A DNA stretch of 63,800 nt, filler included, from 3 parts of 3 records of this genome joined end to end with filler, not necessarily neighbours in it; one strand, 5' to 3'. Counted from the whole stretch's first letter, positions 29,456 to 63,800 are shown. Numbers and translations: made by a program. Notes: generated by a model from the sequence alone, not told the origin.

Positions 29456-29555
29456 NNNNNNNNNNNNNNNNNNNNNNNNNNNNNNNNNNNNNNNNNNNNT
29501 TAATTAATTAANNNNNNNNNNNNNNNNNNNNNNNNNNNNNNNNNNNNNNNNNNNN
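29456..29555. other. Artificial contig spacer
   Basis: N44-TTAATTAATTAA-N44. Confidence 0.99.
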
Positions 29556-41512: not shown

Positions 41513-41522
41513 GGAAAAACTT

Positions 41523-42323
41523 TTGAAATCAATAATCTCATTTTTCAAAGCAGTCATAGAGAACAGATATCTCATCTATCAGCTTACTATAAGGGATGTA
41601 ACCAGCCAATACAAAAGATCAAAGTTGGGAATGTTTTGGTCTCTGGCTGAACCTATGGCCTTTATGGGAATCCTCTACTTGGTATTTGGTATTGGCCTAA
41701 GAGGAGGTCAGTCTATGGATATGCCTTTCATATGTTACCTGATAAGTGGCATGGCTGTCGTTCAGTTCTTCACTGGTACAATGAGTCAGGGGACAATAGC
41801 TATTAGATCACATTCATATCTTTTAAAAAAGATAAACTTTAGATTAAGCATCCTTCCTATCGCAACTGTATTAACAGGAATAGTTCAACATCTAGTTTTT
41901 TTACTTGCTGTACTTATATTTTTCTTCATTAATTGTGTATATCCAACCTGGTACTGGTTTCAAATGATTTACTATTTATTTTCATTATCACTATTGCTTC
42001 TTGGAGTCTCATGGCTTACATCTTCTGTAGGTGTTTTCATGCCAGATCTTCAACATGTGATTAACGTTTTTGGACGAATGGTCTTTTATTTTACACCAGT
42101 TTTCTGGAGCTCTGAAATGTTAAACACTAAACTCCAATATTATTTGAAATTCAATCCTTTGTTTTACATTGTCATGGGATATCGAGAATCATTATATTAT
42201 CGCATTCCTTTTTGGAAACACCCGTTACAAACTATTTACTTTTGGTGTTGGGTTCTTTTTATGATATTAATAGGTATTATTACGTTTAAAAAACTTAGAC
42301 CACAATTTACTGATAATATATGA
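41523..42323 (+). CDS. wzm: Polysaccharide ABC exporter permease
   Basis: YKRSKLGMFW, TPVFW, NPL motifs. Confidence 0.9.
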   Translation: MKSIISFFKAVIENRYLIYQLTIRDVTSQYKRSKLGMFWSLAEPMAFMGILYLVFGIGLRGGQSMDMPFICYLISGMAVVQFFTGTMSQGTIAIRSHSYLLKKINFRLSILPIATVLTGIVQHLVFLLAVLIFFFINCVYPTWYWFQMIYYLFSLSLLLLGVSWLTSSVGVFMPDLQHVINVFGRMVFYFTPVFWSSEMLNTKLQYYLKFNPLFYIVMGYRESLYYRIPFWKHPLQTIYFWCWVLFMILIGIITFKKLRPQFTDNI

Positions 42324-43606
42324 GTATGAATGCAATAGAAATTAAAGAATTAACAAAAACATATAAGCTCTATGAGCGAAATGTATTTGATCGATTTGTA
42401 GATACTTTTTTACCTTGGAAAAGAAAAAAACATAAAGAGTTCCATGCACTCAAAGATGTAAATTTAATAGTGAAACAAGGTGAAATACTTGGAATAGTTG
42501 GTAGAAATGGAGCAGGGAAATCTACCTTACTTAAAATAATTTCAGGGATTACACAGCCAACCTCCGGTTCTGTAATAGTTAATGGACGAATCGTTGCTCT
42601 TCTAGAACTGGGAGGAGGATTTAATCAAGAGTATACAGGGTTTGAAAATATATATTTTACCTGCGCTTTGCAAGGAATGTCAAAAAAAGAGATTGATAGT
42701 ATTTATAAAAAAATTGTGGATTTCTCTGAGCTGGAAGAATTTATTAATATCCCTGTTAAAAAATATTCTAGTGGTATGAAAGCACGATTAGGATTTGCAA
42801 TATCAATAAATGTGAATCCAGAGATTTTAATTCTTGATGAAATACTGGCAGTCGGTGATGAATATTTTAAAAATAAATGTCTTTTTGAAATAAAAAAAAT
42901 GTTTGAAAGTGGTATTACAATAATTTATGTATCACATTCATTGAAATCAATAGAAACTTTATGTACTAAAGCAGAATTTATAGATTCGGGTGAAATTATA
43001 TTATCTTCAACACCAAAGATAGTATGTGATGAATATTGGAAAATATGTAATGAAGAAAAAATTGATCATGAAAGAATAAATAAACTTAAAAAGATTAATA
43101 GCTGTTCAATACTAAAAAAAGAATATGAAAAGAGATACATCGAGTTAAAAAATCGCAAAGAGATCAGTGTAATAAAAAAATTTAAAAATTTAACATTATC
43201 AAAGAAAAAGGTAAGTAATGAAACATTTAGTAGAATAGAAGTGAGAATCCTAAAGACTAATAATAACCAATGTGTACTAGAATGGGGAAAAACTTACCTG
43301 ATCGAAATGGATCTCCATTTACAAAAAAATATTCTTTTGGATGATATTTATATAAGTGTTCTTACAAGTAAAGGAGATAAAGTAACTGGAAGTAGAATCG
43401 ATCTAGTTAAGAGCAAGATTTCTGAAAATGCATTTCTAATTAAAAAAAATATACACAATTATTTAAGTAACGGGTATTACTGTTTGAAAATATCGATTTT
43501 TGCAAATGGAGAAAACTGCAAACCAATATATAAAGATGATGAAGCCCTAATATTTAAAGTCATAAACTCAGGTGATGAAAATGAAAAGATCTCACTTATC
43601 GAATAA
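42320..43606 (+). CDS. wzt: Polysaccharide ABC exporter ATPase with C-terminal extension
   Basis: GRNGAGKST, YSSGMKARL, DEILAVGD. Confidence 0.92.
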   Translation: MSMNAIEIKELTKTYKLYERNVFDRFVDTFLPWKRKKHKEFHALKDVNLIVKQGEILGIVGRNGAGKSTLLKIISGITQPTSGSVIVNGRIVALLELGGGFNQEYTGFENIYFTCALQGMSKKEIDSIYKKIVDFSELEEFINIPVKKYSSGMKARLGFAISINVNPEILILDEILAVGDEYFKNKCLFEIKKMFESGITIIYVSHSLKSIETLCTKAEFIDSGEIILSSTPKIVCDEYWKICNEEKIDHERINKLKKINSCSILKKEYEKRYIELKNRKEISVIKKFKNLTLSKKKVSNETFSRIEVRILKTNNNQCVLEWGKTYLIEMDLHLQKNILLDDIYISVLTSKGDKVTGSRIDLVKSKISENAFLIKKNIHNYLSNGYYCLKISIFANGENCKPIYKDDEALIFKVINSGDENEKISLIE

Positions 43607-44543
43607 AATTTTATCAGTTATTATACCTTGTTATAATTGTAATGATTTTATTAATACAACACTGAAATCAGTAACTGAAAATGATTACGGAAATATTGAA
43701 ATTATACTGATAGATGATGTAGGTGATGAAGATTTTAGGCCTATCATTGATGAAAAGTATAAGAAGTATATTAAAATAATTAAAAATTATAAGAATTCTG
43801 GTCCTGGTTATTCGAGAGTAAAAGGAATGGAGACTGCTAAAGGTAAGTATATTTTGTTCCTTGATTCTGATGACATACTTTCCAGAAGCTCTATTAGTAG
43901 AAGAATTTCAATGATGGAAAAATACAATCTAGATTTTATTCGGGGAGGATTATCATATTATAAAGGAAATAGATTCTATAAAGGTCCTTTCAATGAAAAA
44001 AATGTAATTGAGGATGATATAAACAAAAATAGCAAGGATTTTGAAATCCTTTGGGCTCCTGGATGTTATATTATTAAAAAAGAAACATTAATGAGAACAA
44101 ATGATTATAAACGATCAATGGATTATAGAATAGGTGAAGACCAAATACTGATATCAGCACTTTTAAAAAATACAAATAAATATTCAATAATTGAAGACGT
44201 TGTATATTATTACAGAGAGAATGAAGATAGCCTGATGAAAAGTGAATGGAGTACTAAAAAATTATATGACTTTGTTTTTTTTCAACAATTTATGTTCCAA
44301 AATATATTTGAAATGCCCAAATTGTATAATTTACAAAAAAAAATACGATTCTGTGGGAAATATTTTATTGAAAGATTAAATCTTATAATTAATCTTGATG
44401 ATTGTAATGAGAAAGAAGAAATGATTAATGAGTTGAAGAGATTATATTCAGATGAGTATCGAAAATCAAAAATAGAGTTATTGTTTAATATATCGACAAT
44501 TAAAACTATAAGAAAAACATGGAGAAAAATATATGAGATATAG
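43572..44543 (+). CDS. Glycosyltransferase family 2
   Basis: SVIIPCYN, IDD, FLDSDD, GED. Confidence 0.88.
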   Translation: MMKMKRSHLSNKILSVIIPCYNCNDFINTTLKSVTENDYGNIEIILIDDVGDEDFRPIIDEKYKKYIKIIKNYKNSGPGYSRVKGMETAKGKYILFLDSDDILSRSSISRRISMMEKYNLDFIRGGLSYYKGNRFYKGPFNEKNVIEDDINKNSKDFEILWAPGCYIIKKETLMRTNDYKRSMDYRIGEDQILISALLKNTNKYSIIEDVVYYYRENEDSLMKSEWSTKKLYDFVFFQQFMFQNIFEMPKLYNLQKKIRFCGKYFIERLNLIINLDDCNEKEEMINELKRLYSDEYRKSKIELLFNISTIKTIRKTWRKIYEI

Positions 44544-45477
44544 CATAATTGTACCTTTCTATAATGCAAGTCAGTTTCTTAGAGAAACTTTAAACTCTAT
44601 TTATAAGCAAAATATGAATGATTATGAAGTTATTATAATAGATGATGGGAGTGATGTACAGGAAAAGGAGAAATTATTAAAGATTACTGAAGGTCTTAAT
44701 TGTAAAATAATAACTCATTCTAATAATAAAGGGTTAGGTGAGGCTCGAAATACAGGTATAGATAATGCAAATGGAGAATTCGTAGTATTGCTGGATTCTG
44801 ATGACTATTTAAGTGATGCAAATATATTATCCAAAATTAACAATGTTATTGAAATGAATAACAGTCCTGATCTTATTAAGACCAATACACGTATACTGGA
44901 TCAAACAAATCCTAGTAAGCCTGCTATATATAATGAGATTTCTAATGTCTTATTTGCTGAGAAGCCTATAGCTTTTGAATTATACTTTAAATCTCTTTCA
45001 AGTTGGCAGTTTATATATAGAAAAAAATATTTAATAGACAATGAAATTAAATTTAAATTACCCAGATTTGAGGATAGGCCTTTTATCTATGAGGCCTTAT
45101 CTAAAACTATGAATATAGTAAGTGCTGATGAGATTATGACTATATATCGTAAACGGCCTCCCAATAGTGAAAATAAATCTATACTTCAAAAAAAGAGAAG
45201 TAAGGAGGATTTATACCTTTATTTAGATAATTGTAAATATAGTAAAGACATTGTAGAGAGCTATAGCGTAGGCCTAAGAAAATATGTTTTTACAAATTCA
45301 TTTTGTACTTTATGTGATTCTTATCATCATTTGATAAATGATTTTGATGATGATATAGTTAATCTAATCAAAGAGAAATTAGGTAACGATTTTCATGATC
45401 TAGATTGTTCATCAACAACATTTCAGATTTATGGTGCTCAAAGATATAAAGCTATAATCAATAAAATATATGGATGA
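44533..45477 (+). CDS. Glycosyltransferase family 2
   Basis: SIIVPFYN, DDGS, ARNTG, LDSDD, FED. Confidence 0.9.
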   Translation: MRYSIIVPFYNASQFLRETLNSIYKQNMNDYEVIIIDDGSDVQEKEKLLKITEGLNCKIITHSNNKGLGEARNTGIDNANGEFVVLLDSDDYLSDANILSKINNVIEMNNSPDLIKTNTRILDQTNPSKPAIYNEISNVLFAEKPIAFELYFKSLSSWQFIYRKKYLIDNEIKFKLPRFEDRPFIYEALSKTMNIVSADEIMTIYRKRPPNSENKSILQKKRSKEDLYLYLDNCKYSKDIVESYSVGLRKYVFTNSFCTLCDSYHHLINDFDDDIVNLIKEKLGNDFHDLDCSSTTFQIYGAQRYKAIINKIYG

Positions 45478-46600
45478 ATATATGAATGTTTTTAAAGAAT
45501 TTGGAATCAAAAAAGTGATAATTCATGGAGGTATCTCAAAGACAGGATCAACTGCGTTGCAACATATTTTGGAAAAATCATATTATGATTTACTTGATAT
45601 AAATGTGTTATATCCTAAGAGCATACTTTTTTATGAACCATTAAGAGAAAATAGGTCTTCTGGACATTTTTTGCAGTTAATTGTTGATAATGAAAGAAAA
45701 TTCAATACAAAGATCTCTTCAGAGATTAAGCTTTTGAATCATGATATTGATACTGTGATTATATCGACAGAAAATTTATATGAGTTTTTGAAATCTAAGA
45801 AGAATGTAAATAAAATTAATGAAATATTTAGCGATATAGATGTAGAGCTTGTAATATATCTTCGAAATCAAATTGATTGGATTGAAAGTCAATATAGAGA
45901 AGATATAATAGGGAGTTGGAGAAAAACTAATGTAGATATAAAGAATTATTTAAATGAATATCTACCTGTTAATTTAAACTATTATGAAATGTTAGGTGAA
46001 ATTGAGGAAAAAATATCTCCTAGTAAGATAAGTGTTTTAAATTATGATGTTGAAAAGAAAGATATAATGAAGTCATTTCAATTAGTAACAGGCTTGAATT
46101 TTGATTATGATAATTATGATTTTAATACTAGTGTTGATACTTCTACAATAATTTTATTTAAAACATTGAATAAATTGAACTTCAATGGAGTATATAAGAA
46201 TGTTATCAGAAAATATTTCTCTGAATATTATATTCCAAAAAAAGATAACTATACATTGATAGATGAGGGTTTTAGAGAAGAAATATTGAGTAAATACAAT
46301 ATTTCAAATGAAATGTTAGGAATACAATATTTTCACGATTCTGATTTATATAAATATTACAATACTGGCAAGGAGTACTATAAAAATGGTAATCTCGCTA
46401 TAGATATTCAGTCTATTGAATCTATGTATGATGTAATCAATGATGTTTATGGAATATATCCATTGAATAACAGTCAAAAGGTTGTATATGAGTACATTGA
46501 AAATAGCGAGATTTCAAGTCTAATGAGGCTGGTACATAAAGTACAGCATTCTAAATTATATAAAATGTTTAGACCGTTATTTATATGGATGAAGAAATAG
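45470..46600 (+). CDS. Putative sulfotransferase-fold protein
   Basis: IIHGGISKTGSTALQ 5'-PSB-like motif, IISTENL, YLRNQ...SQY 3'-PB-like motif; next to PAPS genes. Confidence 0.7.
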   Translation: MDEYMNVFKEFGIKKVIIHGGISKTGSTALQHILEKSYYDLLDINVLYPKSILFYEPLRENRSSGHFLQLIVDNERKFNTKISSEIKLLNHDIDTVIISTENLYEFLKSKKNVNKINEIFSDIDVELVIYLRNQIDWIESQYREDIIGSWRKTNVDIKNYLNEYLPVNLNYYEMLGEIEEKISPSKISVLNYDVEKKDIMKSFQLVTGLNFDYDNYDFNTSVDTSTIILFKTLNKLNFNGVYKNVIRKYFSEYYIPKKDNYTLIDEGFREEILSKYNISNEMLGIQYFHDSDLYKYYNTGKEYYKNGNLAIDIQSIESMYDVINDVYGIYPLNNSQKVVYEYIENSEISSLMRLVHKVQHSKLYKMFRPLFIWMKK

Positions 46601-47595
46601 TTTTATCTATTATAATACCTGTCTATAATACAGGGGATTATTTAAATCAATGTATTAACTCAGTTATCTTAGAATCTGCAAATTATGAAATTATTATAGT
46701 TAATGATGATTCAGATGATCATTCGCAATCTATTATAGATAAATATATTTCTGAATACTGTTTTATCAAATCGTTTAAAACTGAGAGAATAGGTTTATCT
46801 GAAGTAAGAAATTTTGGTATCAAAAAATCTAAAGGAAAATACTTATTATTTCTTGATAGTGATGATTTCTTTTTAAATAATTCTGTTGAATATATTTATA
46901 ACCATGTTTGTGGATTAGATGATGATATAATTTTATTTGACGCACTGATGTATGATAACAATAATGGCAATTATTTGAAATATTTTGATAGCGATTTATT
47001 TTACTGTATATCAAAGATTAGTAATATTAATAGATGTAGGAAGATTTTATTAAAAATGGAGCCTGCAGCATGGAAAAAAATATATCGGAAAGAGTTCATA
47101 GCCGATACTATTTTTCCCAAGAATCTTATATTTGAGGATTTACCATTCCATTTAAGTATTACAGATAATTTCAAATCAATATCTTTTCTTAAAAATTGCA
47201 GTATAGTCTATAGAATAAATAGAGAGGGACAAATCACTAGTAATGATGATTTAAGTTTGATCGATTTTTTTGATATTATAGATATTGTTTTTAAAAAGAA
47301 ATATAAATTTATATCAATAGATGAAATTTTTGAAATATATAAGAGATATGTTTTTTGGATGATAAATAAAAGGATATTTAAAAAAAAAGTATTTAGGAAT
47401 AGATTAAGGGATACTAATCGTAAGTATTTTAATTGGCCTTTTTATATTCATTATGTAAGAGAATGTTCTTTATATTCAAGAATCCAATATTGGAAGATAA
47501 TCTTATTGAGATATCATGTAACATTAAAGTTTATTTCAATTATAAATCTATATAAGAAACTGAGGCATAATAATGATCTGGATCATCGGAAGTAG
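46585..47595 (+). CDS. Glycosyltransferase family 2
   Basis: SIIIPVYN, FLDSDD, AWKKIYR, FED. Confidence 0.9.
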   Translation: MDEEIVLSIIIPVYNTGDYLNQCINSVILESANYEIIIVNDDSDDHSQSIIDKYISEYCFIKSFKTERIGLSEVRNFGIKKSKGKYLLFLDSDDFFLNNSVEYIYNHVCGLDDDIILFDALMYDNNNGNYLKYFDSDLFYCISKISNINRCRKILLKMEPAAWKKIYRKEFIADTIFPKNLIFEDLPFHLSITDNFKSISFLKNCSIVYRINREGQITSNDDLSLIDFFDIIDIVFKKKYKFISIDEIFEIYKRYVFWMINKRIFKKKVFRNRLRDTNRKYFNWPFYIHYVRECSLYSRIQYWKIILLRYHVTLKFISIINLYKKLRHNNDLDHRK

Positions 47596-48445
47596 AGGTT
47601 TGTTAGGCCGAGAACTCTGCCAGTTTCTAGGAGAGAAGGGGCTTAAGGTTATCGGGACAGATAAGGAGGTGGATGTTCTGTCTCCCGCCGCCCTGTGTCA
47701 GCATGTTAAGAGCTTTAAGCCTAACTACATTATCAACTGCTCTGGTTATACCGACATCGACAGGGCCGAGGAGGAGTGGGACAGCGCCCTGATGCTGAAT
47801 AAGATGGGACCCGAATCGATCGCTCGGCTCGCCGAAGATCTGAAGGTCCCTCTGATCCACTTCTCAACAGACCAGGTGTTTGACGGGAAGGGAAGGACGC
47901 CACTTGTGGAAAGCGATCCCACAAGGCCCTGTAACACCTATGGCGCCAGCAAGCTGGCCGGGGAATGGGCCTTAAAGAACGAGTGCAGCCGCTACTTTAT
48001 TATCAGAACAGCCAGACTCTATGGAGCCTATGGACGGAATCCTGTGTTGAAGTTCCTTTCTGTTGTGAGCAGGGGAGATCCCTACAACCTGGGATACGAC
48101 AGGATCGTCAGTCCCACCTGGACCCGGGATCTTGCTATCTTTGTATACAGGATCATAGCCTCAGGCAGCAGGGACTATGGAACCTATCACTACGCCGGGA
48201 AGGGAGAGTGCAGCCGCCAAGAGTTCGCTCTCTCGGCTTATCATCAGGCCAGGAAGAACGGATGGATGGACCATCCTCTGGACCTGACCCTGGAGCCGGA
48301 ACCGGGAAAGGCCTCGCGGCCTGCTTACTCCGTGCTTTCCTCGGAAAAAGCCGTAAAGGCCTTCGATGTTAGAGTCACACCCTGGGAAGACGCCCTGGGG
48401 GCCTTTCTCTCTACCGTATCGAAAGATCACATTGACCAGCATTAA
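47573..48445 (+). CDS. rfbD: dTDP-4-dehydrorhamnose reductase
   Basis: GSRGLLG, STDQVFDG, YGASK, RPAYSVL. Confidence 0.88.
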   Translation: MIWIIGSRGLLGRELCQFLGEKGLKVIGTDKEVDVLSPAALCQHVKSFKPNYIINCSGYTDIDRAEEEWDSALMLNKMGPESIARLAEDLKVPLIHFSTDQVFDGKGRTPLVESDPTRPCNTYGASKLAGEWALKNECSRYFIIRTARLYGAYGRNPVLKFLSVVSRGDPYNLGYDRIVSPTWTRDLAIFVYRIIASGSRDYGTYHYAGKGECSRQEFALSAYHQARKNGWMDHPLDLTLEPEPGKASRPAYSVLSSEKAVKAFDVRVTPWEDALGAFLSTVSKDHIDQH

Positions 48446-48457
48446 GGAAAATTCAAC

Positions 48458-49150
48458 TTGAATATCATCGAACTCAAAAATGTCAGCCGTAATTATCCTA
48501 TGGGAGAGGTTGAGGTGCAGGCCCTGAAAGGGATAGACCTCAGCGTCAAGCAGGGTGACTTTATGGCTGTCGTGGGGCACTCGGGTGCCGGCAAGACCAC
48601 TATCATGAATATCATCGGATTGATCGATGATCCCAGTTCGGGAGACGTTCACATAGGCGGAAGCCGAGTGGGTGGGCTTAACGATACCGAGAAGACCCGC
48701 ATGAGGCGGGACAGTCTGGGATTTATATTCCAGTCCTTTAACCTCCTGCCTGTTCTATCGGTGGAAGAGAACATCGAACTGCCCCTGATGCTCGGACGCA
48801 GGCCTCCCGTCAAGGAAGAGAGGCAGGACAGGGTCCGTGAGCTGGTGAAGAGCGTGGGGTTGGAAAAGTGGAGAAACCACAAGCCCGGGGAGCTCTCGGG
48901 CGGTCAGAGGCAGAGGGTGGCCATCGCCAGGGCGCTGATCGGCAGGCCTCGGATCGTGGTGGCCGATGAGCCTACCGCCAACTTGGACTCCGGGACATCC
49001 GATGAAATCCTGAAGCTCATGAGAGACATCAACGAGGTATACAGAACGACCTTCGTTTTCTCCTCCCACGATCCTATCATTCAGGATATGGCCGCCCATG
49101 TGGTGCACCTGAAAGACGGCCGCATAGAAAGGGAAGAACGATTCTCATGA
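48458..49150 (+). CDS. ABC ATP-binding protein (LolD-like)
   Basis: GHSGAGKT, LSGGQRQR, ADEPTANLD. Confidence 0.92.
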   Translation: MNIIELKNVSRNYPMGEVEVQALKGIDLSVKQGDFMAVVGHSGAGKTTIMNIIGLIDDPSSGDVHIGGSRVGGLNDTEKTRMRRDSLGFIFQSFNLLPVLSVEENIELPLMLGRRPPVKEERQDRVRELVKSVGLEKWRNHKPGELSGGQRQRVAIARALIGRPRIVVADEPTANLDSGTSDEILKLMRDINEVYRTTFVFSSHDPIIQDMAAHVVHLKDGRIEREERFS

Positions 49151-50607
49151 TCCTTGCCCTTTCCTACAGAAATCTCAATAGAAACAGAAGGCAGAGCTTG
49201 GTTATATTCTGCCTATTCGCCCTTCTGATAGCCCTTTTTTATATCGGAAACGCCCTGATCGCCGAATCGGGAGAGGGGCTTAAGACAAGTTACAGGCGGA
49301 ATTTTACCGGTGACCTGGTGATCAAGGCCCCCTCTGAGATGGAAGTGAGCCTCTTCGGAGCCGTTACCCCCTCCATGGGCGACTACTATGTGATGCCCCT
49401 GTTGGAAGACAGAGAGACGTTCCAGACCATTCTGGACTTTTCTGATGGGGTGGAGGGATACACCGGCCTCTCCTCCGGGGCCGCCGTGGCCCAGGTGAAG
49501 GATGTGAATATCCATCTGCCCCTTTTCGGCGTGGAAGGGGGGAGCTACTTTCGTATGTTTCCCGGGCTGAAGCTGCTGGCCGGCGAGGAGCTGGAATCGG
49601 GAGAAGAGGGCGTCATGTTCAGCAATGATCTGGTCAGAAGGATCAACGAGCAGACGGGCGATATTCTGAAGATCGGGGAGCCCGTGCTCATCAGCATGGG
49701 AGGCAACCGGGGATTCAAGATCAGGGAAGTCCCTCTGAAGGGGATCTTCGAGTACGATACCAGGAATCCCGAGCTGGACAGGATCGCCCTCTGCGACATG
49801 AGAACCCTGAACGTCCTCAACTCCCTGGCCCTTGCGGACGGGAATGAAGAGAGCATCTCCGATTCGGAGATGTCTCTGATGGACGAGGACCTCTTCGGAG
49901 ATCTGGATGAGCTTTTTGCCGATGATCTCAGCCGTGAGGATAACGCCGATACCTCGGTAGGAGTGGAAGACGTGATGGGCATCTTCGATACCGATGTTAA
50001 GGCGCCGGAATCCAGCGGAGATTGGCATTTTGTCCTGGTCAGACTGAAAGACGGGATTCGCATCAAGAGCTTTATCCGGGAACTGGAAGGCAAGTTCAAA
50101 GCCCACGGGGCGATGGTCGAAGTCATGAACTGGAGAGAGGCCGCGGGCCTGAGCGCCCGCATGGTCTTTCTGCTCCAGCTCCTCTACAACGCCGGCTTTT
50201 TCCTGGTGCTTCTGGCCGGGGGAGTGGCTATTGTCAATATCCTGCTTATCTCTGTATTCGACCGCTATGCCGAGATCGGTACCCTCCGGGCCATAGGCGC
50301 TCCCAAACCCTGGGTGGCCCTGTTGATCCTGACCGAGAATATGACCCTTGCCCTCTGCGGAGGCCTGGTCGGTCTGAACCTGGGCAACCTTGTCCTAAAG
50401 GGCATCAATCTCCTCAATCTGAGGATAGAAAATACCCTGGTCCAGACCCTCCTGGGGATGAAGACAGTGGAAATCGGGAGCCATCCAGGCTGGGCCTGGG
50501 GCTCATTGGGAGTCTCCGTCCTTCTGGGACTGGCCGCCAGCTGGATACCCGTCAGAAGGGCCCTGAGCATCCTGCCTACAGACGCCCTGAGAAGGAGCGG
50601 ATTATGA
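49147..50607 (+). CDS. FtsX/LolE-like ABC permease
   Basis: RNLNRNRRQS, EIGTLRAIG, 4 TM with large periplasmic domain. Confidence 0.88.
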   Translation: MILALSYRNLNRNRRQSLVIFCLFALLIALFYIGNALIAESGEGLKTSYRRNFTGDLVIKAPSEMEVSLFGAVTPSMGDYYVMPLLEDRETFQTILDFSDGVEGYTGLSSGAAVAQVKDVNIHLPLFGVEGGSYFRMFPGLKLLAGEELESGEEGVMFSNDLVRRINEQTGDILKIGEPVLISMGGNRGFKIREVPLKGIFEYDTRNPELDRIALCDMRTLNVLNSLALADGNEESISDSEMSLMDEDLFGDLDELFADDLSREDNADTSVGVEDVMGIFDTDVKAPESSGDWHFVLVRLKDGIRIKSFIRELEGKFKAHGAMVEVMNWREAAGLSARMVFLLQLLYNAGFFLVLLAGGVAIVNILLISVFDRYAEIGTLRAIGAPKPWVALLILTENMTLALCGGLVGLNLGNLVLKGINLLNLRIENTLVQTLLGMKTVEIGSHPGWAWGSLGVSVLLGLAASWIPVRRALSILPTDALRRSGL

Positions 50608-57787: not shown

Positions 57788-57887
57788 NNNNNNNNNNNNN
57801 NNNNNNNNNNNNNNNNNNNNNNNNNNNNNNNTTAATTAATTAANNNNNNNNNNNNNNNNNNNNNNNNNNNNNNNNNNNNNNNNNNNN
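57788..57887. other. Artificial contig spacer
   Basis: N44-TTAATTAATTAA-N44. Confidence 0.99.
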
Positions 57888-58445
57888 AACAGTTGTTTCT
57901 TCGATATATTCACCAAGTTCTAACATTGCATTTGTACTATTAGCTGCAAGATAATCTTTTCTTGCGATACTAACACCAACTGCTGTTGCTTCAAGAACTT
58001 TTGAAGTTAAACCTTCACTAAATAACTCTTTTGCACCTTCAATTAATAAAGGTCTAGAAGCGTATGAAGTGATTGCAAATTTTGCCCAATCATTGTGGAT
58101 AACTCTTTCAGCACCTAAAGCGATACCTGCTCTAAGAAGTCCATTTAAACTAGGTTTCTCTTCACCAACACAATCAACACAATCACTTAAAAATGTTTCG
58201 CAAACCTTGTATCTGTTTAAATCAAGATCTTCTAAAATATCTTTTATAGTGTCTAATGCTTTTCCATCATGTGTGAAAACAATAGATCCAATTTTTTTAT
58301 TAACTCTTACATTATCTATTCCATCAACAGATTCTAAATATTGAATTAAAGATGAGTTATTAAACTCTTGAGACTTTAACTCTTCAAAATAAAACCTCGC
58401 TCTTTTTTTAGTTTTATGTAAAAGTTTTATATTGTTTCGGCTCAT
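57888..58445 (-). CDS. P1B-type ATPase N-terminal fragment (FezB-like), truncated
   Basis: RARF HMA2-like N-domain; SKVLEATAVGVSIARKDYLAANSTNAMLELGEYIEE corresponds to the first TMs of P1B ATPases. Confidence 0.75.
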
Positions 58446-58456
58446 TATCTCTCTTA

Positions 58457-58792
58457 TTATTCTTGTGCTTCCATTTCAGCTTTAGCATCTTCAAATCTTT
58501 CTTTCATCTCTTCGATTCCAGCGCTAAAAAGTGTGCTTCCTTTTGCAATTGTTCTAAAAATAGCTTTTTGAGCATTTTCATTTGTTAAAATATATGCTCC
58601 AACTGCTCCTACAACTGCGCCAAGTAAAAACTTGTTTGTATCAAATGAACCTAATAATCCAGAATCAGCATTTGCAGAATTATCGATATATGGATTTTGG
58701 TTTACCAAATTTACATCTTGTGCTTGATTTACATTAGCATTTGTTTGATTGATATATGGGTTTTGATTAATATTGTTCATATTATTTGCCAT
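58457..58792 (-). CDS. Small GxxxG membrane protein (FezA/YtxH-like) with two NQNPYI repeats
   Basis: FLLGAVVGAVGAY helix, C-terminal EEMKERFEDAKAE. Confidence 0.75.
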   Translation of the reverse strand: MANNMNNINQNPYINQTNANVNQAQDVNLVNQNPYIDNSANADSGLLGSFDTNKFLLGAVVGAVGAYILTNENAQKAIFRTIAKGSTLFSAGIEEMKERFEDAKAEMEAQE

Positions 58793-59148
58793 TATGCTTC
58801 CTCTTCTTCAATTTCTTCTTCAACAATTGGTCTTTGACATAATTTTTCACTAATTTTCTCAACAGCATAAACTCCTGCCATACCAACTGAAAGTGCAGTT
58901 AACATTTTAAATGTACTACCTTCTCCTAAATAGTTTGCAGCTGCAATTGCACTTCCAGTAGCAATTCCACCTTGTGCAGAAAGCTTTATTGAGTCACTAA
59001 TCGCTGCATTTTTACCAATTTGACCTTTTTTGAACTTGTTATAATTTATCCCTGCAGCTAATGCTCCTGCAGCTAAAGAACCACTTACAACATGACCTGT
59101 AACATTTCTTGGTGTTCCTGTATTAACAGATAATAAATTAGTTGCCAT
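58792..59148 (-). CDS. Small Gly/Ala-rich membrane protein (MamC-like / Fez accessory)
   Basis: SGSLAAGALAAG, GGIATGSAIAAA, VGMAGVY; acidic tail. Confidence 0.65.
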   Translation of the reverse strand: MATNLLSVNTGTPRNVTGHVVSGSLAAGALAAGINYNKFKKGQIGKNAAISDSIKLSAQGGIATGSAIAAANYLGEGSTFKMLTALSVGMAGVYAVEKISEKLCQRPIVEEEIEEEEA

Positions 59149-59389
59149 TGGCTACTTCTCCTTTTTCTTCAATATTTTCTTCTTTTTTCTTTGTTTTTAT
59201 AGCTTCAACTTTTTCAGTAACAGTTGCTTTCACATCTTTTGAAAGCTTTTTTGTTTTTTCAAAACCCTCTTCAGCATATTTTTTTGCTTTTGAGGCACCA
59301 TTTTTTACACTTTTTTTAATCTCACTTTTATTGTTATAAGCAACTACAGCAACAGCTCCTGCTGCAATTCCAGCGATGAAAGGTAACAT
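59138..59389 (-). CDS. Small GxxxG membrane protein with Lys-rich helical tail
   Basis: MLPFIAGIAAGAVAVVAY; GAGGAG RBS. Confidence 0.75.
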   Translation of the reverse strand: MLPFIAGIAAGAVAVVAYNNKSEIKKSVKNGASKAKKYAEEGFEKTKKLSKDVKATVTEKVEAIKTKKKEENIEEKGEVANGN

Positions 59390-59390
59390 A

Positions 59391-59489
59391 TTAATTCTCC
59401 TCTACTTTTTTAAGTTTTTTATTTTTACTGAATAGTACAGCAACTGTACCACCAACTAACGCACCTAATGCAAAAGGAATAAACGGCAT
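59391..59489 (-). CDS. 32-aa GxxxG microprotein absent from ORF track
   Basis: MPFIPFALGALVGGTVAVLFSKNKKLKKVEEN*; GGAGG RBS; fills the gap with 1-nt spacing on both sides. Confidence 0.75.
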   Translation of the reverse strand: MPFIPFALGALVGGTVAVLFSKNKKLKKVEEN

Positions 59490-59490
59490 A

Positions 59491-60267
59491 TTACACCTCC
59501 TCTTCTTCTTTAGATTCTTCTTCCTTATCTTTTACAACTTGAGATAAAACTCCAGCACCAACAGCGCCTAATAAAGCACCACCAATAAATGATACATTTG
59601 AATTATTTAATAGTTTTAAAATATCTTCTTGATTAAAGTTTCCAGAAGCAAATTTCGAAGCCATTGCACTAATTTCATCCATCTTACTTATAGCTTCATC
59701 TATATTATGTATTGAATTTTCTTGATGTATTGTATTTACATTTACATCATTTATGTTTGTATTAGAGTGTTGAGCTACTGCTTGTCTTAAAGCTGGTAAA
59801 TGATTGTTGTAAGATGCTGCTTGCAATCTGTATAAAAGATCTAAAATATCAGGATACTCTTTTGCGTATGTGATTAAATTGTCATACATTTTTATATTAT
59901 CAATCTCTTCTGCAACTGCAACTTCTGCCGCTTCTAAAAGAGTATTTGGTTCTTCAACTTTTATAACCCAGTCATTTAAAGGTGCAGGAACTTGATATTT
60001 TTCCATTAATACAGTTATCTCTTCATAATGACTAATCTCTGCTTGTAAGATATTAGTAAAAGGTGTTATCTCTCCAAATTTTTCAATTATAACTTTATAG
60101 TTTTCATATGCATGATATTCATCATACACTGCTATTCTTAGTACTTGATGTAAAATTGGTTCAGGATAACTTGGGTTAACTCTTAATCCATCTAATAAGT
60201 CTTGGTCAAAATTTGAAGTGGGTAGATTTTCTTGACTAGTTGTTTGTTCTTCTAAGTTCTCTTCCAT
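59491..60267 (-). CDS. Ferritin-like protein (DUF2202-type) with C-terminal GxxxG membrane tail (FezD-like)
   Basis: DEYHAY...PFTNILQAEISH...EEIDNIKMYD...ASYNNHL; tail FIGGALLGAVGAGVL. Confidence 0.8.
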   Translation of the reverse strand: MEENLEEQTTSQENLPTSNFDQDLLDGLRVNPSYPEPILHQVLRIAVYDEYHAYENYKVIIEKFGEITPFTNILQAEISHYEEITVLMEKYQVPAPLNDWVIKVEEPNTLLEAAEVAVAEEIDNIKMYDNLITYAKEYPDILDLLYRLQAASYNNHLPALRQAVAQHSNTNINDVNVNTIHQENSIHNIDEAISKMDEISAMASKFASGNFNQEDILKLLNNSNVSFIGGALLGAVGAGVLSQVVKDKEEESKEEEEV

Positions 60268-60269
60268 CT

Positions 60270-60584
60270 TTATACAACCTCTTTAGTAAGTTTATTTAAA
60301 ATCTCAGCTATTTCTTCAAGGTTTTCTTGATTTATCATATCTTTCCATAATCTATCTGGAAACACTGAGTTATCGTACTCAATTGTAATCGAACCGATAA
60401 TTTTATTGATTTTTATCTTTTTAATTCCCGCTATTTTATTAGGAATATCCTCAATATCTTCTAAAGTAATATCATTACTTTGTTCCTTTATTTTTGGACT
60501 TACCCTTACTCTTATTCTTCCTTTTGTATGGTGTACTAATGTTAAATAAGAGCCTATTTCAATTAGTTTTTCTACTGTTATCAA
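60270..60584 (-). CDS. HMA2-domain protein
   Basis: VHHTKGRIRVR, GIKKIKINKIIGSITIEYD. Confidence 0.8.
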   Translation of the reverse strand: MITVEKLIEIGSYLTLVHHTKGRIRVRVSPKIKEQSNDITLEDIEDIPNKIAGIKKIKINKIIGSITIEYDNSVFPDRLWKDMINQENLEEIAEILNKLTKEVV

Positions 60585-60646
60585 TATTTGTATCCTTTTT
60601 GTAATCTAATTATTGTAAAAAAAAATAAATTTAAGCTTAATATAAA

Positions 60647-62800
60647 TCAAGAATTATTATCAATTGCTAGCCTTGATGAGTTTGCCATAATACCTACAGT
60701 ATGGGCTATATGAATAAGTCCTGCACCCACTGGAGTAAGTGTTCCAAGAGCTGACATTCCAACTCCTATTAAGTTTGTACCTGTACCTAAGTAATAGTTC
60801 TGATTAACTACATTTAAACTCTTTTTACTTAAGTCATAAAGATTTACAACATCTTCAGGATGTGAGTGTGTAATTGCTACATCTGATACAGCTATTGCAG
60901 CTTCACTTCCACCTGCGGCAAAAGAGATTGCAACATCAGCTTTGCTCATTGCATAAGTATCATTTACTCCATCTCCAACCATCACAACACTTTTATACTT
61001 TTTCTTCAATTCATTTATTGCATCTGCTTTACCTTGTGGGGATTGGTTTGCGAATACAGAATCAAACCCAAAATCAAGAGCAAAACTATTTGCAACTTTT
61101 ACTTCATCTCCAGTCAAAAGAGCAATATGTTTAACACCTCTTTGTCTTAATTCTTCAATCATCTCTTTTGTTCCTGGTCTAACTTCATGAGTAAAAGCTA
61201 GTAAACCTAAAACTTCATCTTCAAGTGCAACTAAAACTACAGTTTTACCATTGTTTAGGTGTGTAGATATTTCGTGTTTATAATCTTTTGTTGAAACTTT
61301 GTATTTTGATAATAAAGCTTTATTTCCAATTAGAAGTCTTTTTCCATCAACTTTTGATTTTACTCCAAAGCCTGGAATTATTTCGCTTAATATATTTTGA
61401 TTAATGTCTATTTCTCTGTCGATTGCATTTTTTACAATTGAACTTGCAATTGGATGAGAGTTTCTATATTCTGCCATTGCAGCATAAGCTATAAGTTCAT
61501 CTTCGCTTATATTGCTAAACAATAAAATATCACTTATTACAGGTTTTCCTGTTGTAAGAGTTCCTGTTTTATCAAAACAAAACACTTCACTTTTCCCTAC
61601 ATTTTCTAAAGCTTCTCCACCTTTTATAAGAATACCTTGTTTTGCTCCATTTGATATTCCACCACTTATTGCAGTAGAGGCGGCTAAAACAGTTGCACAA
61701 GGACAAGACATTACAATCATTGTTGAAAATGCAGCTGTAAAAGAACCAGTTAAAAGAAAAGTTCCTGCAGTTAATAAAGTACCAAGTTTTAAAAGCTTAT
61801 TTGCTAATCTATCAGCTTCAACTTCACTTGGCGATTTTTGTAATAATGAAAACTCTACTTCTCTCATAGTTCTTGATATATAAGTATCGTTTCCTAAAGC
61901 TACAACTTTTATAAAAATTCTTCCTCTTTCACAAACTGTTCCTGCAAAAACTTCATCATCAACTTGTTTAAACTCTGGTTCACTTCTACCATTGATTAAA
62001 GCTTCATTTATCTCTGCACTTCCTTCAGTGATAACTCCATCTACAGGAATCTTTTCACCACTTCTGCTTACTACGATATCTCCATCTTTCAACTCTTCGA
62101 TATCAGTTTCTATCTCTACACCATCAACTAAAATATAAACTTTTTTGATGTCAAGTTCAACCAGACTTTGAATCTCTTCTCTTGATTTATTTGCAATATA
62201 TTCTTCAAGAAGCATTCCACCTCTTAAAATATATATAATCTCAAAAGCAGCAGTTGCTTCCCCAAATAAAATAGCCATAATCAAAGTACTACTCATAAAT
62301 GTATGTAAAGTAAACTTTTTTTGTTTTATATCTTCTAGTGATTCTTTTAATAAAGGAATAGCAGCTACAACTGAAACTATACCTACTAGACTGAATGGTG
62401 TTGCAGCAATAGTAAGACCTAAGATATTTTCACTTATAAAAAGATATACGGCATATCCACTTAATAATGCAAACTCAAAAAGTTTTCTTTTCCATGATTT
62501 TTCATCATGCTTTTTTATCTCACAACTACTACAACTTTGTTGTTCACAAAGCGCATTACTTGCAGGAACTGATAAAGTTATATTGAATAAATTTTTCATT
62601 TTGTCTACTATATCATCAAGTGTAACATTTAATGAATATGTGAAAATAATTGATTTACATGAGATGTTTTTTCTAAACGAGGTAAAAATATCCTCAAACT
62701 CTTTTTCTATAATCTCTAAATTACCAGTATTTGCAAATATTTCAGATTTTAATCTAACTCTGTTATTTGCTATACTTTTTACTATAATGTCATTGTTCAT
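60647..62800 (-). CDS. P1B-type heavy-metal ATPase (FezH-like second ferrosome ATPase)
   Basis: SCPCA, DKTGTLT, SHP, GDGVND, last-TM HIAHT; TGES replaced by NGRS. Confidence 0.9.
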   Translation of the reverse strand: MNNDIIVKSIANNRVRLKSEIFANTGNLEIIEKEFEDIFTSFRKNISCKSIIFTYSLNVTLDDIVDKMKNLFNITLSVPASNALCEQQSCSSCEIKKHDEKSWKRKLFEFALLSGYAVYLFISENILGLTIAATPFSLVGIVSVVAAIPLLKESLEDIKQKKFTLHTFMSSTLIMAILFGEATAAFEIIYILRGGMLLEEYIANKSREEIQSLVELDIKKVYILVDGVEIETDIEELKDGDIVVSRSGEKIPVDGVITEGSAEINEALINGRSEPEFKQVDDEVFAGTVCERGRIFIKVVALGNDTYISRTMREVEFSLLQKSPSEVEADRLANKLLKLGTLLTAGTFLLTGSFTAAFSTMIVMSCPCATVLAASTAISGGISNGAKQGILIKGGEALENVGKSEVFCFDKTGTLTTGKPVISDILLFSNISEDELIAYAAMAEYRNSHPIASSIVKNAIDREIDINQNILSEIIPGFGVKSKVDGKRLLIGNKALLSKYKVSTKDYKHEISTHLNNGKTVVLVALEDEVLGLLAFTHEVRPGTKEMIEELRQRGVKHIALLTGDEVKVANSFALDFGFDSVFANQSPQGKADAINELKKKYKSVVMVGDGVNDTYAMSKADVAISFAAGGSEAAIAVSDVAITHSHPEDVVNLYDLSKKSLNVVNQNYYLGTGTNLIGVGMSALGTLTPVGAGLIHIAHTVGIMANSSRLAIDNNS

Positions 62801-62948
62801 ATTAATCCTTAGAACTTCTCTATATTAAGTAAGATTAAATTTAAATCTTTCCAATTGTATCCCTATTTGGATTATACTTGCAAATTCTGTTCTTATATAA
62901 TTTTATAAAATTTCAAATCTTATTTAAATATAGTTATCTAGTCTAATT

Positions 62949-62965
62949 TTAATAATTAGTATCAT
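62949..62965. promoter_or_regulatory. Fur-box-like site upstream of the ATPase operon
   Basis: Minus strand ATGATACTAATTATTAA resembles TGATAATnATTATCA; AT-rich background lowers confidence. Confidence 0.45.
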
Positions 62966-63018
62966 AAAGTAAAGTTAAGTTGAAAATTTAGATTTTATTA
63001 GAAAAGAGTTTTTTATTA

Positions 63019-63049
63019 TTTAGGCTACAAAAGTAGCCTAAACTTTTTT
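63019..63049. terminator. Hairpin / intrinsic terminator
   Basis: Perfect stem TTTAGGCTAC-AAAA-GTAGCCTAAA; T run follows on the plus strand. Confidence 0.7.
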
Positions 63050-63212
63050 AATCAATAAGCTGTTTTGTAACTTTTACAATTCTATCTAGGTTTACACCTT
63101 TATTTCTCATCTTTACAATTCTTATTATTGAACATAAACACTCTTTTGGTTCATCTATATGTGCTTGTTCTATAACTCTATTTACTTCTGTTCTTAATCT
63201 ATAATCTGACAT
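63048..63212 (-). CDS. 54-aa hypothetical protein absent from ORF track
   Basis: MSDYRLRTEVNRVIEQAHIDEPKECLCSIIRIVKMRNKGVNLDRIVKVTKQLID*; AAGGGG RBS; Fur box upstream and hairpin downstream. Confidence 0.65.
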   Translation of the reverse strand: MSDYRLRTEVNRVIEQAHIDEPKECLCSIIRIVKMRNKGVNLDRIVKVTKQLID

Positions 63213-63229
63213 TTACTTCCCCTTGTTAG

Positions 63230-63250
63230 TTTTGATAATCATTCTCAAAA
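63230..63250. promoter_or_regulatory. Fur box
   Basis: TTTTGATAATCATTCTCAAAA, near-perfect palindrome matching the 7-1-7 Fur consensus. Confidence 0.75.
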
Positions 63251-63339
63251 TATTACACATAGAAAGCTTAAGAAAATATTAATTGATTCTTAATATCAAT
63301 ACTTCTATTTTTTATTAAGTTAAATTTAAAGAGTTATTT

Positions 63340-63419
63340 TTGATAACCATTATTAATATTAAGTTCTTGTTAAGGATTTTAGTATTACAATTCACCTACA
63401 TTTTGATATTAATTATTAA
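63340..63419. promoter_or_regulatory. Two further Fur-box-like sites upstream of imelysin
   Basis: TTGATAACCATTATTAA (63340-63356) and TTGATATTAATTATTAA (63403-63419). Confidence 0.55.
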
Positions 63420-63470
63420 AATAGCAATTATAATATCATTCTCTAACTTATTACACATAAAGGAAAACAT

Positions 63471-63800
63471 ATGAAGAAAACAAAATTAGTTGTAGCTTCA
63501 ATTAGTGTTGCAGCAGCACTAGCATTTAGTGGTTGTACTACTACAACAAGTAATACTGAACCAACAGTAAAAGTAGAAAATAAAACAGCAAATATTTTAG
63601 CATCTTATGCAAAAATTGCACAAACTAACTATAACGACGCTTTAGAAGATGCAAAAGCACTTCAAGTTGCAATTGATAAATTTGCATCAAATCCTACTGA
63701 AAAAACTTTAGAAGAAGCAAAAAATGCTTGGTTAGCTTCAAGAGAATCTTATGGACAAACTGAAATTTTCAGACTTTCAAATGGTCCAATTGATGCAGAA
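63471..63800 (+). CDS. Imelysin-family (IrpA-like) iron-regulated lipoprotein, truncated at window end; absent from ORF track
   Basis: AAGGA RBS; MKKTKLVVASISVAAALAFSGC lipobox; YAKIA...Y.DAL...AKNAWLASRESYGQTEIFRL.NGPID. Confidence 0.85.
   Translation, partial: MKKTKLVVASISVAAALAFSGCTTTTSNTEPTVKVENKTANILASYAKIAQTNYNDALEDAKALQVAIDKFASNPTEKTLEEAKNAWLASRESYGQTEIFRLSNGPIDAE

Follow-up and report, generated by a model that had tools for sequence, protein, structure and literature searches.

A probable two-pump ferrosome (fez) gene cluster on an Arcobacteraceae-like contig

The DNA analysed here, called the window throughout, is a stretch of 63,800 nucleotides in which three unrelated contigs are chained by N spacers. 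Its third contig (57888-63800, 5,913 bases, 29.9% guanine plus cytosine, GC) carries on the minus strand a set of genes resembling those of the ferrosome, a recently found bacterial organelle that stores iron in granules enclosed by a membrane and that to our knowledge has been shown so far in four species. Eight minus-strand genes, spaced by -11 to +62 bases, form one tight operon, referred to below as the fez operon. They are listed in the direction of transcription, with the basis of each assignment in brackets (aa, amino acids; ORF, open reading frame).

60647-62800, minus strand: ATPase-A, a FezH-like P1B ATPase of 717 aa (ORF, Pfam, NCBIfam)
60270-60584, minus strand: soluble arginine-rich (R-rich) HMA_2 protein of 104 aa (Pfam PF19991)
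59491-60267, minus strand: ferritin-like (DUF2202-type) protein of 258 aa (relatives' Pfam matches, AlphaFold, Foldseek)
59391-59489, minus strand: single-helix protein of 32 aa (ORF, GxxxG, hydropathy)
59138-59389, minus strand: FezA-like protein of 83 aa (ORF, GxxxG, conservation)
58792-59148, minus strand: MamC-like membrane protein of 118 aa (NCBIfam MamC match)
58457-58792, minus strand: NPYIN protein of 111 aa (ORF, GxxxG, conservation)
57888-58445, minus strand: FezB, first 186 residues, the gene being cut by the contig end (Pfam HMA_2, identical protein P0001)

An initial annotation, made from the sequence, had placed here two ATPases, an HMA_2 protein, a ferritin-like protein and four GxxxG proteins; all of them were found where it had put them, on the minus strand.

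The operon was compared with 22 related loci, 20 of them chosen by hand to span 53-83% identity and the other two being L001 and L002. All but one of the 20 fetched loci lie on the first-numbered contig of their genome, and two of these contigs are short (60 and 264 kb). The core, comprising the HMA_2, ferritin-like, 83-, 118- and 111-aa proteins and FezB, had the same order in all 22 loci, with protein identities of 30-90%, which argues that the cluster is more than a chance arrangement. The closest locus, L022, on a contig of 3.1 Mb, shows 80-90% identity and the same order, including a divergent imelysin gene; L002, from an Arcobacteraceae metagenome-assembled genome (MAG), has the same order at 65-77% identity, its counterpart of the 32-aa ORF reaching 56% over 16 residues, and L001, from a Sulfurimonas MAG, again keeps the gene order. 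At E up to 1e-100, a FezB orthologue was found in 100 of the 184 species genomes of the Arcobacteraceae, and 169 of the 401 genomes that sample the phylum have one. Judged from these genomes, the fez core appears to be one of the commoner accessory operons of Campylobacterota. The contig itself is classed by sequence as Arcobacteraceae-like, its nearest named relatives being Halarcobacter and an Arcobacteraceae MAG, in agreement with the Arcobacter/Campylobacterota-like origin first proposed for it.

The last gene of the operon encodes, in the part that is present, an R-rich HMA_2 N-domain (Pfam, E = 6.3e-09) followed by the first membrane helices. Pfam assigns this domain to HMA_2 rather than HMA, and the fragment is without a CxxC metal-binding domain. 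It carries RAR at residues 15-17 (KKRARF, 13-18), with R15 and R17 invariant in 23 sequences. In the text available of the preprint by Grant and Komeili (10.1101/2020.01.10.902569), D[Y/F]SCA in the fourth membrane helix and HNxxT in the sixth, together with an R-rich N-terminus, define FezB, or P1B-6, pumps. The initial annotation had named D(Y/F)SC and HNxxT as the motifs to look for in the truncated ATPase. They lie outside the window itself, and they are present in P0001, a public protein of 704 aa with 100% identity over all 186 FezB residues of the window, which reads LQADYSCALK, DKTGT and AVLHNGTTIGL. QADYSCALK and HNGTT also occur in 22 of 22 FezB orthologues from the related loci, 21 of which have RxR within their first 40 residues. 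By the motifs of the identical full-length protein and of the orthologues, the cut ATPase is assigned to FezB (P1B-6).

The next-best match after P0001 is a Halarcobacter protein at 84%. By its source name, P0001 is an ORF that a Trinity assembly contributed to a eukaryote protein set, which is no more than a hint of transcription somewhere. Three close FezB relatives (P0001, P0017 and P0008) stand under labels that do not match: two belong to a eukaryote protein set (one the Trinity ORF, one labelled Anaeramoeba) and one to a Sphaerochaetaceae MAG, which points to bacterial carry-over or mis-binning in these records.

The first gene encodes a complete P1B pump, ATPase-A (Pfam E1-E2_ATPase, E = 8.8e-37; NCBIfam heavy-metal P-type ATPase, 458 bits), with NNRVRLKS at the N-terminus, MSCPCAT in the fourth transmembrane segment (TM4), DKTGT at residue 410 and HIAHT in TM6. 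Its N-terminus gave no match to Pfam HMA_2; in hhalign it aligned with the FezB N-domain at a probability of 98.0% and with the free HMA_2 protein at 88.3%. RxR-type N-domains, reported at the outset for both ATPases, are borne out as RVR in ATPase-A and RAR in the FezB fragment. MSCPC[AS]T and HI[GA]HT were found in nine of nine members of the ATPase-A family. This second pump is less constant than the core: an orthologue is adjacent to the core in only 8 of the 22 loci and occurs in 19 of the 184 Arcobacteraceae species genomes. A search of 1.8 billion representatives returned a graded family, in which most of P0121-P0142 (down to about 395 bits) have [SA]CPCAT, H[IVM]xHT and RxR; its named members come from an uncultured Campylobacter, Candidatus Scalindua and Halochromatium. 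The TM6 motif of the ATPase-A family is H[IVM]xHT; the group of hits that follows has HN[LA]ST with ACPCAAGL, and our guess is that this second group is CtpC-like. CtpC-type pumps, named as R-rich relatives of FezB in the available text of the preprint (10.1101/2020.01.10.902569), have an R-rich N-terminus and a CPC-type TM4 in common with ATPase-A. With its R-rich N-terminus (RVR), SCPC and HIAHT, ATPase-A fits the published description of FezH, and it is called FezH-like on that description only.

A quick maximum-likelihood tree was built from 37 rows (23 FezB, nine ATPase-A and five other P1B pumps, with no named references). FezB (23 rows) and ATPase-A (9 rows) form two fully supported clades, which are sisters (support 94) against the five other P1B pumps. 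A search of 14 control genomes for HMA_2 gave no match and hence no reference Fez sequence for this tree.

Between the pumps lie a soluble domain protein and a ferritin-like protein. The HMA_2 protein (PF19991, E = 6.4e-10) carries GRIRVRV, a motif kept as GR[IL]R[VLIF][RK] in 23 of 23 sequences; a hydropathy scan of it found no hydrophobic segment, and hhalign aligned it with the FezB N-domain at 98.1%. It is similar to FezD in being small and soluble.

Taken alone, the 258-aa protein matches DUF2202 at E = 0.0043 and 17.3 bits, below the Pfam cut-off of 22. Among its relatives (23 sequences), DUF2202 was matched by 10 and Rubrerythrin by five. Its AlphaFold model has a mean predicted local distance difference test (pLDDT) score of 78.5, exceeding 90 for most of the helical core, and the top solved structures matched by Foldseek are MJ0754 (E = 8.5e-05), bacterioferritins and ferritins. 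The window protein by itself being a weak match, the ferritin-like call follows from the relatives' Pfam matches, the model and the solved structures. A hydrophobic C-terminal helix contains G230ALLG234, with G230 and G234 invariant in 23 sequences, so that the ferritin-like protein with a GxxxG tail of the initial annotation stands on both fold and tail. Twelve of 23 sequences retain the ExxH of the second helix, and L029-L036 and L038-L040, a more distant and probably Campylobacter-like group, have lost it; the metal site may for this reason not be a conserved function of the protein.

The remaining four genes encode small proteins of 32, 83, 118 and 111 aa, each with a strict GxxxG inside a hydrophobic stretch, and the GxxxG motifs of the small proteins are conserved in alignments of 23 sequences. 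The 83-aa FezA-like protein consists of an N-terminal helix, LPFIAGIAAGAVAV, which contains the GxxxG, and a lysine-rich tail; it was found in 22 of 22 loci. The 32-aa protein, with PFALGALVGG, is a short look-alike of that N-terminus. In phmmer it has matches in 4 of the 22 loci (L022, L002, L028 and L030), of which those in L028 and L030 are the ORF of the 83-aa gene itself; blastp shows separate short ORFs for it in L022 (30 aa) and L002 (28 aa).

The 111-aa protein, also found in 22 of 22 loci, has an N-terminal NPYIN, a GxxxG helix with GAVVGAVGAY and a conserved acidic C-terminal helix, EEMKERFEDAKAE; in the protein atlas it matches only unnamed, mostly Campylobacterota clusters.

The 118-aa protein has two hydrophobic stretches and a central QGGIATGSAI motif and is likewise present in all 22 loci. 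It matches the NCBIfam model of MamC (NF038051) at E = 2.4e-07 over profile positions 8-92 of 97 (85 positions), and 13 of 23 family members match the same model at E up to 0.01, the best at 2.6e-09. The score of 31 bits is below the curated cut-off of 100, so the protein is not a MamC equivalog, and its Gly/Ala-rich helices may inflate the score. MamC is also small, with two hydrophobic stretches, and belongs to a gene set for a mineral-holding membrane compartment; unlike in that set, no other magnetosome genes stand beside the 118-aa protein. The text available of the preprint (10.1101/2020.01.10.902569) does not mention MamC.

Upstream of the operon the contig contains the following features.

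62801-63047, minus strand: presumed operon promoter region (pattern matches only)
63019-63042, no strand assigned: terminator-like hairpin with a 10-bp stem, between the 54-aa ORF and the operon promoter
63048-63212, minus strand: conserved 54-aa ORF just upstream of the operon (ORF, relatives)
63471-63800, plus strand: start of a divergent imelysin (Peptidase_M75) lipoprotein gene, 110 codons (Pfam, E = 2.3e-14)

The 670 bases from 62801 to 63470 hold eight Fur-like sites scoring at least 13/19, against 1.2 expected, and none of 1000 shuffles reached eight; the Fur-like boxes noticed earlier upstream of the operon are present as candidate sites, arranged in pairs six bases apart. Those at the front of the operon (62945-62969) overlap each other, score 13/19 each and overlap a promoter-like site. 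Promoter-like hexamers, which are pattern matches only, lie at 62973-62946 and 62883-62854; a sigma-70 scan returned 19 sites against 28.1 in shuffles and was uninformative. The strongest Fur-like sites (14/19) are at the promoters of the 54-aa ORF (63228-63252) and of the imelysin gene, whose boxes are at 63336-63360 and 63399-63423. An Rfam search of 57888-63800 gave zero matches at E up to 0.1.

Of the related loci, 14 of 22 contain a Fur-family gene, which in 11 of them is the immediate upstream neighbour on the same strand; three of the 22 contain feoAB. It is the gene neighbourhood, rather than conservation of the boxes, that speaks for iron control. In those 11 loci (for example L002, 9550-10011) the Fur-family gene is the first gene of the cluster and often overlaps the next start. 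The window and L022 are without an upstream Fur gene and have the imelysin operon in its place; in L022 (569-4287) this consists of divergent genes, two for imelysin with one for a di-haem oxidoreductase (DHOR) between them, presumed to be an iron-uptake set. The imelysin gene of the window is an iron-uptake context outside the fez operon. Matches to the 54-aa ORF occur in 30 of the 184 family genomes. Its place in G090 and G086 is about 170-220 bp upstream of an ATPase-A orthologue, and in the window, too, it precedes ATPase-A; no match to it was found in Pfam, NCBIfam or the protein atlas. At the other end of the cluster, a SpoIIAA-like (PF11964) gene follows fezB in 18 of 22 loci, directly adjacent in 15 (for example L022, 11005-11673, and L002, 16590-17249). 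It is likely a further member of the Campylobacterota fez cluster, whose copy here would fall beyond the contig end; the available preprint text (10.1101/2020.01.10.902569) does not name this neighbour.

From the FezB motifs, the ferritin-like fold, the GxxxG helices, the R-rich HMA_2 domains and the iron neighbourhood, we consider it probable that an Arcobacteraceae bacterium has at this locus a fez (ferrosome) gene cluster of the large, two-pump form. The first reading of the locus as a ferrosome-like operon is supported in this respect, since the FezB motifs, once looked for, were present. Several points weigh against it. With the contig ending at residue 186, the window is without the stretch of FezB in which the defining motifs lie. 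The AlphaFold model of FezB has four helices before the actuator domain (101-115, 119-144, 148-161 and 165-196, two of them weakly hydrophobic) against a reported six-helix topology, and a hydropathy scan finds few clear segments. TM4 of ATPase-A is a classical CPC motif, and with 351 and 360 bits both pumps exceed the 313.5 bits set in NCBIfam as the cut-off of the broad 'cadmium family' subfamily. The tree is without the Fez proteins of Desulfovibrio magneticus, Shewanella and C. difficile, and membership in FezB rests on motifs and gene content. The Fur-box at the operon promoter is weak (13/19), and in only 5 of 22 loci do the 300 bases before the first fez gene contain a 14/19 site, those bases being fur coding sequence in many of these loci; conservation of the box across relatives is not convincing. 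Ferrosomes are known from anaerobic growth, and many Arcobacteraceae are aerotolerant. The literature searched yields no experiment on any member of the phylum.

Three alternatives were considered. The contig could be an assembly artefact or chimera, its operon existing in no real organism, given that the window chains unrelated contigs differing in GC and that this contig is short, with both ends inside genes. An identical 5,913-base contig is present in public run X1, though X1 is possibly the source of the window; run X2, from another study, holds a contig of 41,024 bases that spans 57888-63346 with 84 differing letters and extends past 57888, and L022 keeps the gene order at 80-90% protein identity within 3.1 Mb. 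The X1 and X2 contigs indicate real DNA of a real organism, and the continuation in X2 that the end of the contig truncates the second ATPase, which is not a broken gene. The X2 contig and the synteny with L022 refute a chimera, to which we give practically no credence. The genes could instead form an ordinary efflux or resistance operon for Zn, Cd, Cu or Mn, with the pumps in the cytoplasmic membrane and the small proteins as accessory chaperones. The cadmium-family scores and the CPC of ATPase-A would suit it, as would the nearest solved structures, which are CopA-type pumps, and one relative of ATPase-A labelled 'manganese-exporting' by its source. Yet the DYSCA and HNGTT of FezB are unlike Cu or Zn signatures, and both pumps score far under the equivalog cut-offs of CopA (281 and 286 bits against 1316) and ZntA (273 and 253 bits against 1240). 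CxxC HMA domains are absent from the cluster, while the same genomes have separate pumps with Cys-rich N-termini, that of L022 having classical HMA domains; a ferritin-like protein and four GxxxG membrane proteins would be out of place in an efflux operon, and the neighbours of the cluster are the iron genes Fur, feoAB and imelysin. The motifs, the missing CxxC, the low CopA and ZntA scores and the ferritin-like and GxxxG partners together make toxic-metal efflux unlikely, and we hold this explanation to be improbable.

A third alternative accepts the genes and differs on the organelle: in these microaerophiles, fez-type genes might work without a visible organelle, as a membrane-bound complex that buffers or exports iron at the cytoplasmic membrane. 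S. putrefaciens and R. palustris grown aerobically showed no ferrosomes, a membrane-anchored ferritin-like protein could store or oxidise iron vesicle-free, and the literature searched reports no granules for the phylum. On the other hand, the S. putrefaciens fez operon suffices for granules in E. coli, and all 22 loci, drawn from across the phylum, keep the core set intact. We regard a vesicle-free role as rather unlikely, though a more serious contender than efflux.

If the locus is a fez cluster, its working can be sketched from the homologous systems of D. magneticus, S. putrefaciens, R. palustris and C. difficile, the locus itself supplying the list of parts. Iron scarcity would lift Fur repression of the operon. 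The small GxxxG proteins (FezA-like, MamC-like and NPYIN) would insert in the membrane and help to shape a small vesicle, into which FezB would move Fe(II) from the cytoplasm, spending ATP, and where iron would be laid down as an iron-phosphate mineral. The membrane-anchored ferritin-like protein may bind, oxidise or nucleate iron at the membrane, and the soluble HMA_2 protein may use the R-rich domain that it shares with the pumps to dock to them or pass metal to them. The second pump (SCPC/HIxHT) could transport the same or another divalent metal. The stored iron would be used during iron starvation. The cluster would thus most likely build Fur-controlled, membrane-bound iron-phosphate stores loaded by FezB.

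The contigs joined in the window are separated by N runs around a six-frame stop spacer, ttaattaattaa, at 29456-29555 and 57788-57887, and their GC contents are 29.3%, 47.5% and 29.9% in order. Because unrelated contigs are joined by spacers, genes across the joints are uninformative about each other. The first contig (1-29455) holds a hybrid non-ribosomal peptide synthetase-polyketide synthase cluster whose genes all lie on the minus strand. Its domains include condensation, AMP-binding, ketosynthase and acyltransferase domains, and it also has genes for a radical SAM enzyme, for ABC and FtsX transporters and for a GHKL/SpoOB-type (Agr-like) sensor kinase; this contig does not look to share an organism with the fez contig. 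The contig preceding the fez contig has 47.5% GC overall and about 55% over its last 8 kb; within it, 4-kb windows at about 41500-49500 fall to 28% and 39% GC, a stretch that could be a foreign island, perhaps with surface-sugar genes. Contigs of runs X3 and X4, only guessed to be RNA, cover most of the fez operon, and no inference on expression was drawn from them; nor was anything concluded from the very high contig depth of X4 at 59194-59356 or from its uncovered stretch at 62442-62837.

Among known systems is the cluster around SMUL_2748, a gene listed among the FezB homologues with conserved clusters in the legend of Extended Data Fig. 5 of Grant and Komeili (10.1101/2020.01.10.902569), a source available in part, whose lists count 304 FezB homologues. 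The prefix SMUL in this locus tag denotes the epsilonproteobacterium Sulfurospirillum multivorans, of the same phylum as the fez contig. The larger fez clusters described in the available text (10.1101/2020.01.10.902569) are alike in having the FezB motifs with an R-rich N-terminus, a second R-rich P1B ATPase (FezH), R-rich accessory proteins, GxxxG proteins, a DUF2202 protein with a GxxxG tail, and the iron-homeostasis neighbours Fur and Feo; FezH and the SMUL cluster were compared with the window by description only. The names Arcobacter, Campylobacter and Wolinella are absent from the main text of the preprint (10.1101/2020.01.10.902569) as far as it was available.

The six-gene fez operon (FezB, C, D, E, F and G) of S. 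putrefaciens and R. palustris is, according to the partial sources at hand, needed for ferrosomes, and that of Shewanella is sufficient in E. coli. It resembles the operon of the window in its FezB pump, a small soluble R-rich FezD-like protein and GxxxG membrane proteins. By contrast, the window is without a FezC-type HMA protein with two membrane helices and adds a ferritin-like protein and a second pump. The fezAB operon of C. difficile, as described in the accessible parts of three sources (PMC12574912, PMC13463818, 10.64898/2026.06.16.732667), is alike in combining FezB with a small membrane protein, in the Fur control expected here and in the iron storage under limitation proposed for it, but it is much smaller and belongs to a Gram-positive strict anaerobe. 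Repression of fezAB by Fur is stated in two of these (PMC12574912; 10.64898/2026.06.16.732667).

The literature searched contains no paper linking the ferrosome with Arcobacter or Epsilonproteobacteria, and of the papers mentioning both ferrosome and Campylobacter, none looks by title and abstract like a test in the phylum. The initial annotation knew of no experimental demonstration in this phylum, and these searches agree. The cluster is of a known type, already listed for the phylum through SMUL_2748 and present in about half of the Arcobacteraceae species genomes. The spread across the phylum is the most useful by-product of the analysis, and the window itself adds one more copy.

A wider reading of this spread, which we put forward tentatively and think possible rather than probable, is that Campylobacterota have a richer set of ferrosome tools of their own, comprising an HMA_2 chaperone, a membrane-anchored ferritin-like protein, the FezA-like, MamC-like and NPYIN proteins and FezB, usually with a SpoIIAA-like protein and a dedicated Fur and sometimes with a second SCPC/HxxHT pump. 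On the same tentative footing, these tools would serve to build vesicles that store iron in microaerophiles, with Campylobacter-like host-associated species and Aliarcobacter butzleri among them, the MamC-like member might reflect a shared ancestry of ferrosome and magnetosome membrane proteins, and the second pump might load a metal other than iron. A 2025 review (PMC12574912), seen in part, asks whether ferrosomes occur in other pathogens or commensals. Cultivable carriers of the cluster exist, which would make Campylobacterota practical for testing ferrosome formation outside strict anaerobes. The same phylum would be practical for studying the roles of the ferritin-like, MamC-like and SpoIIAA-like partners and the cargo of the second pump.

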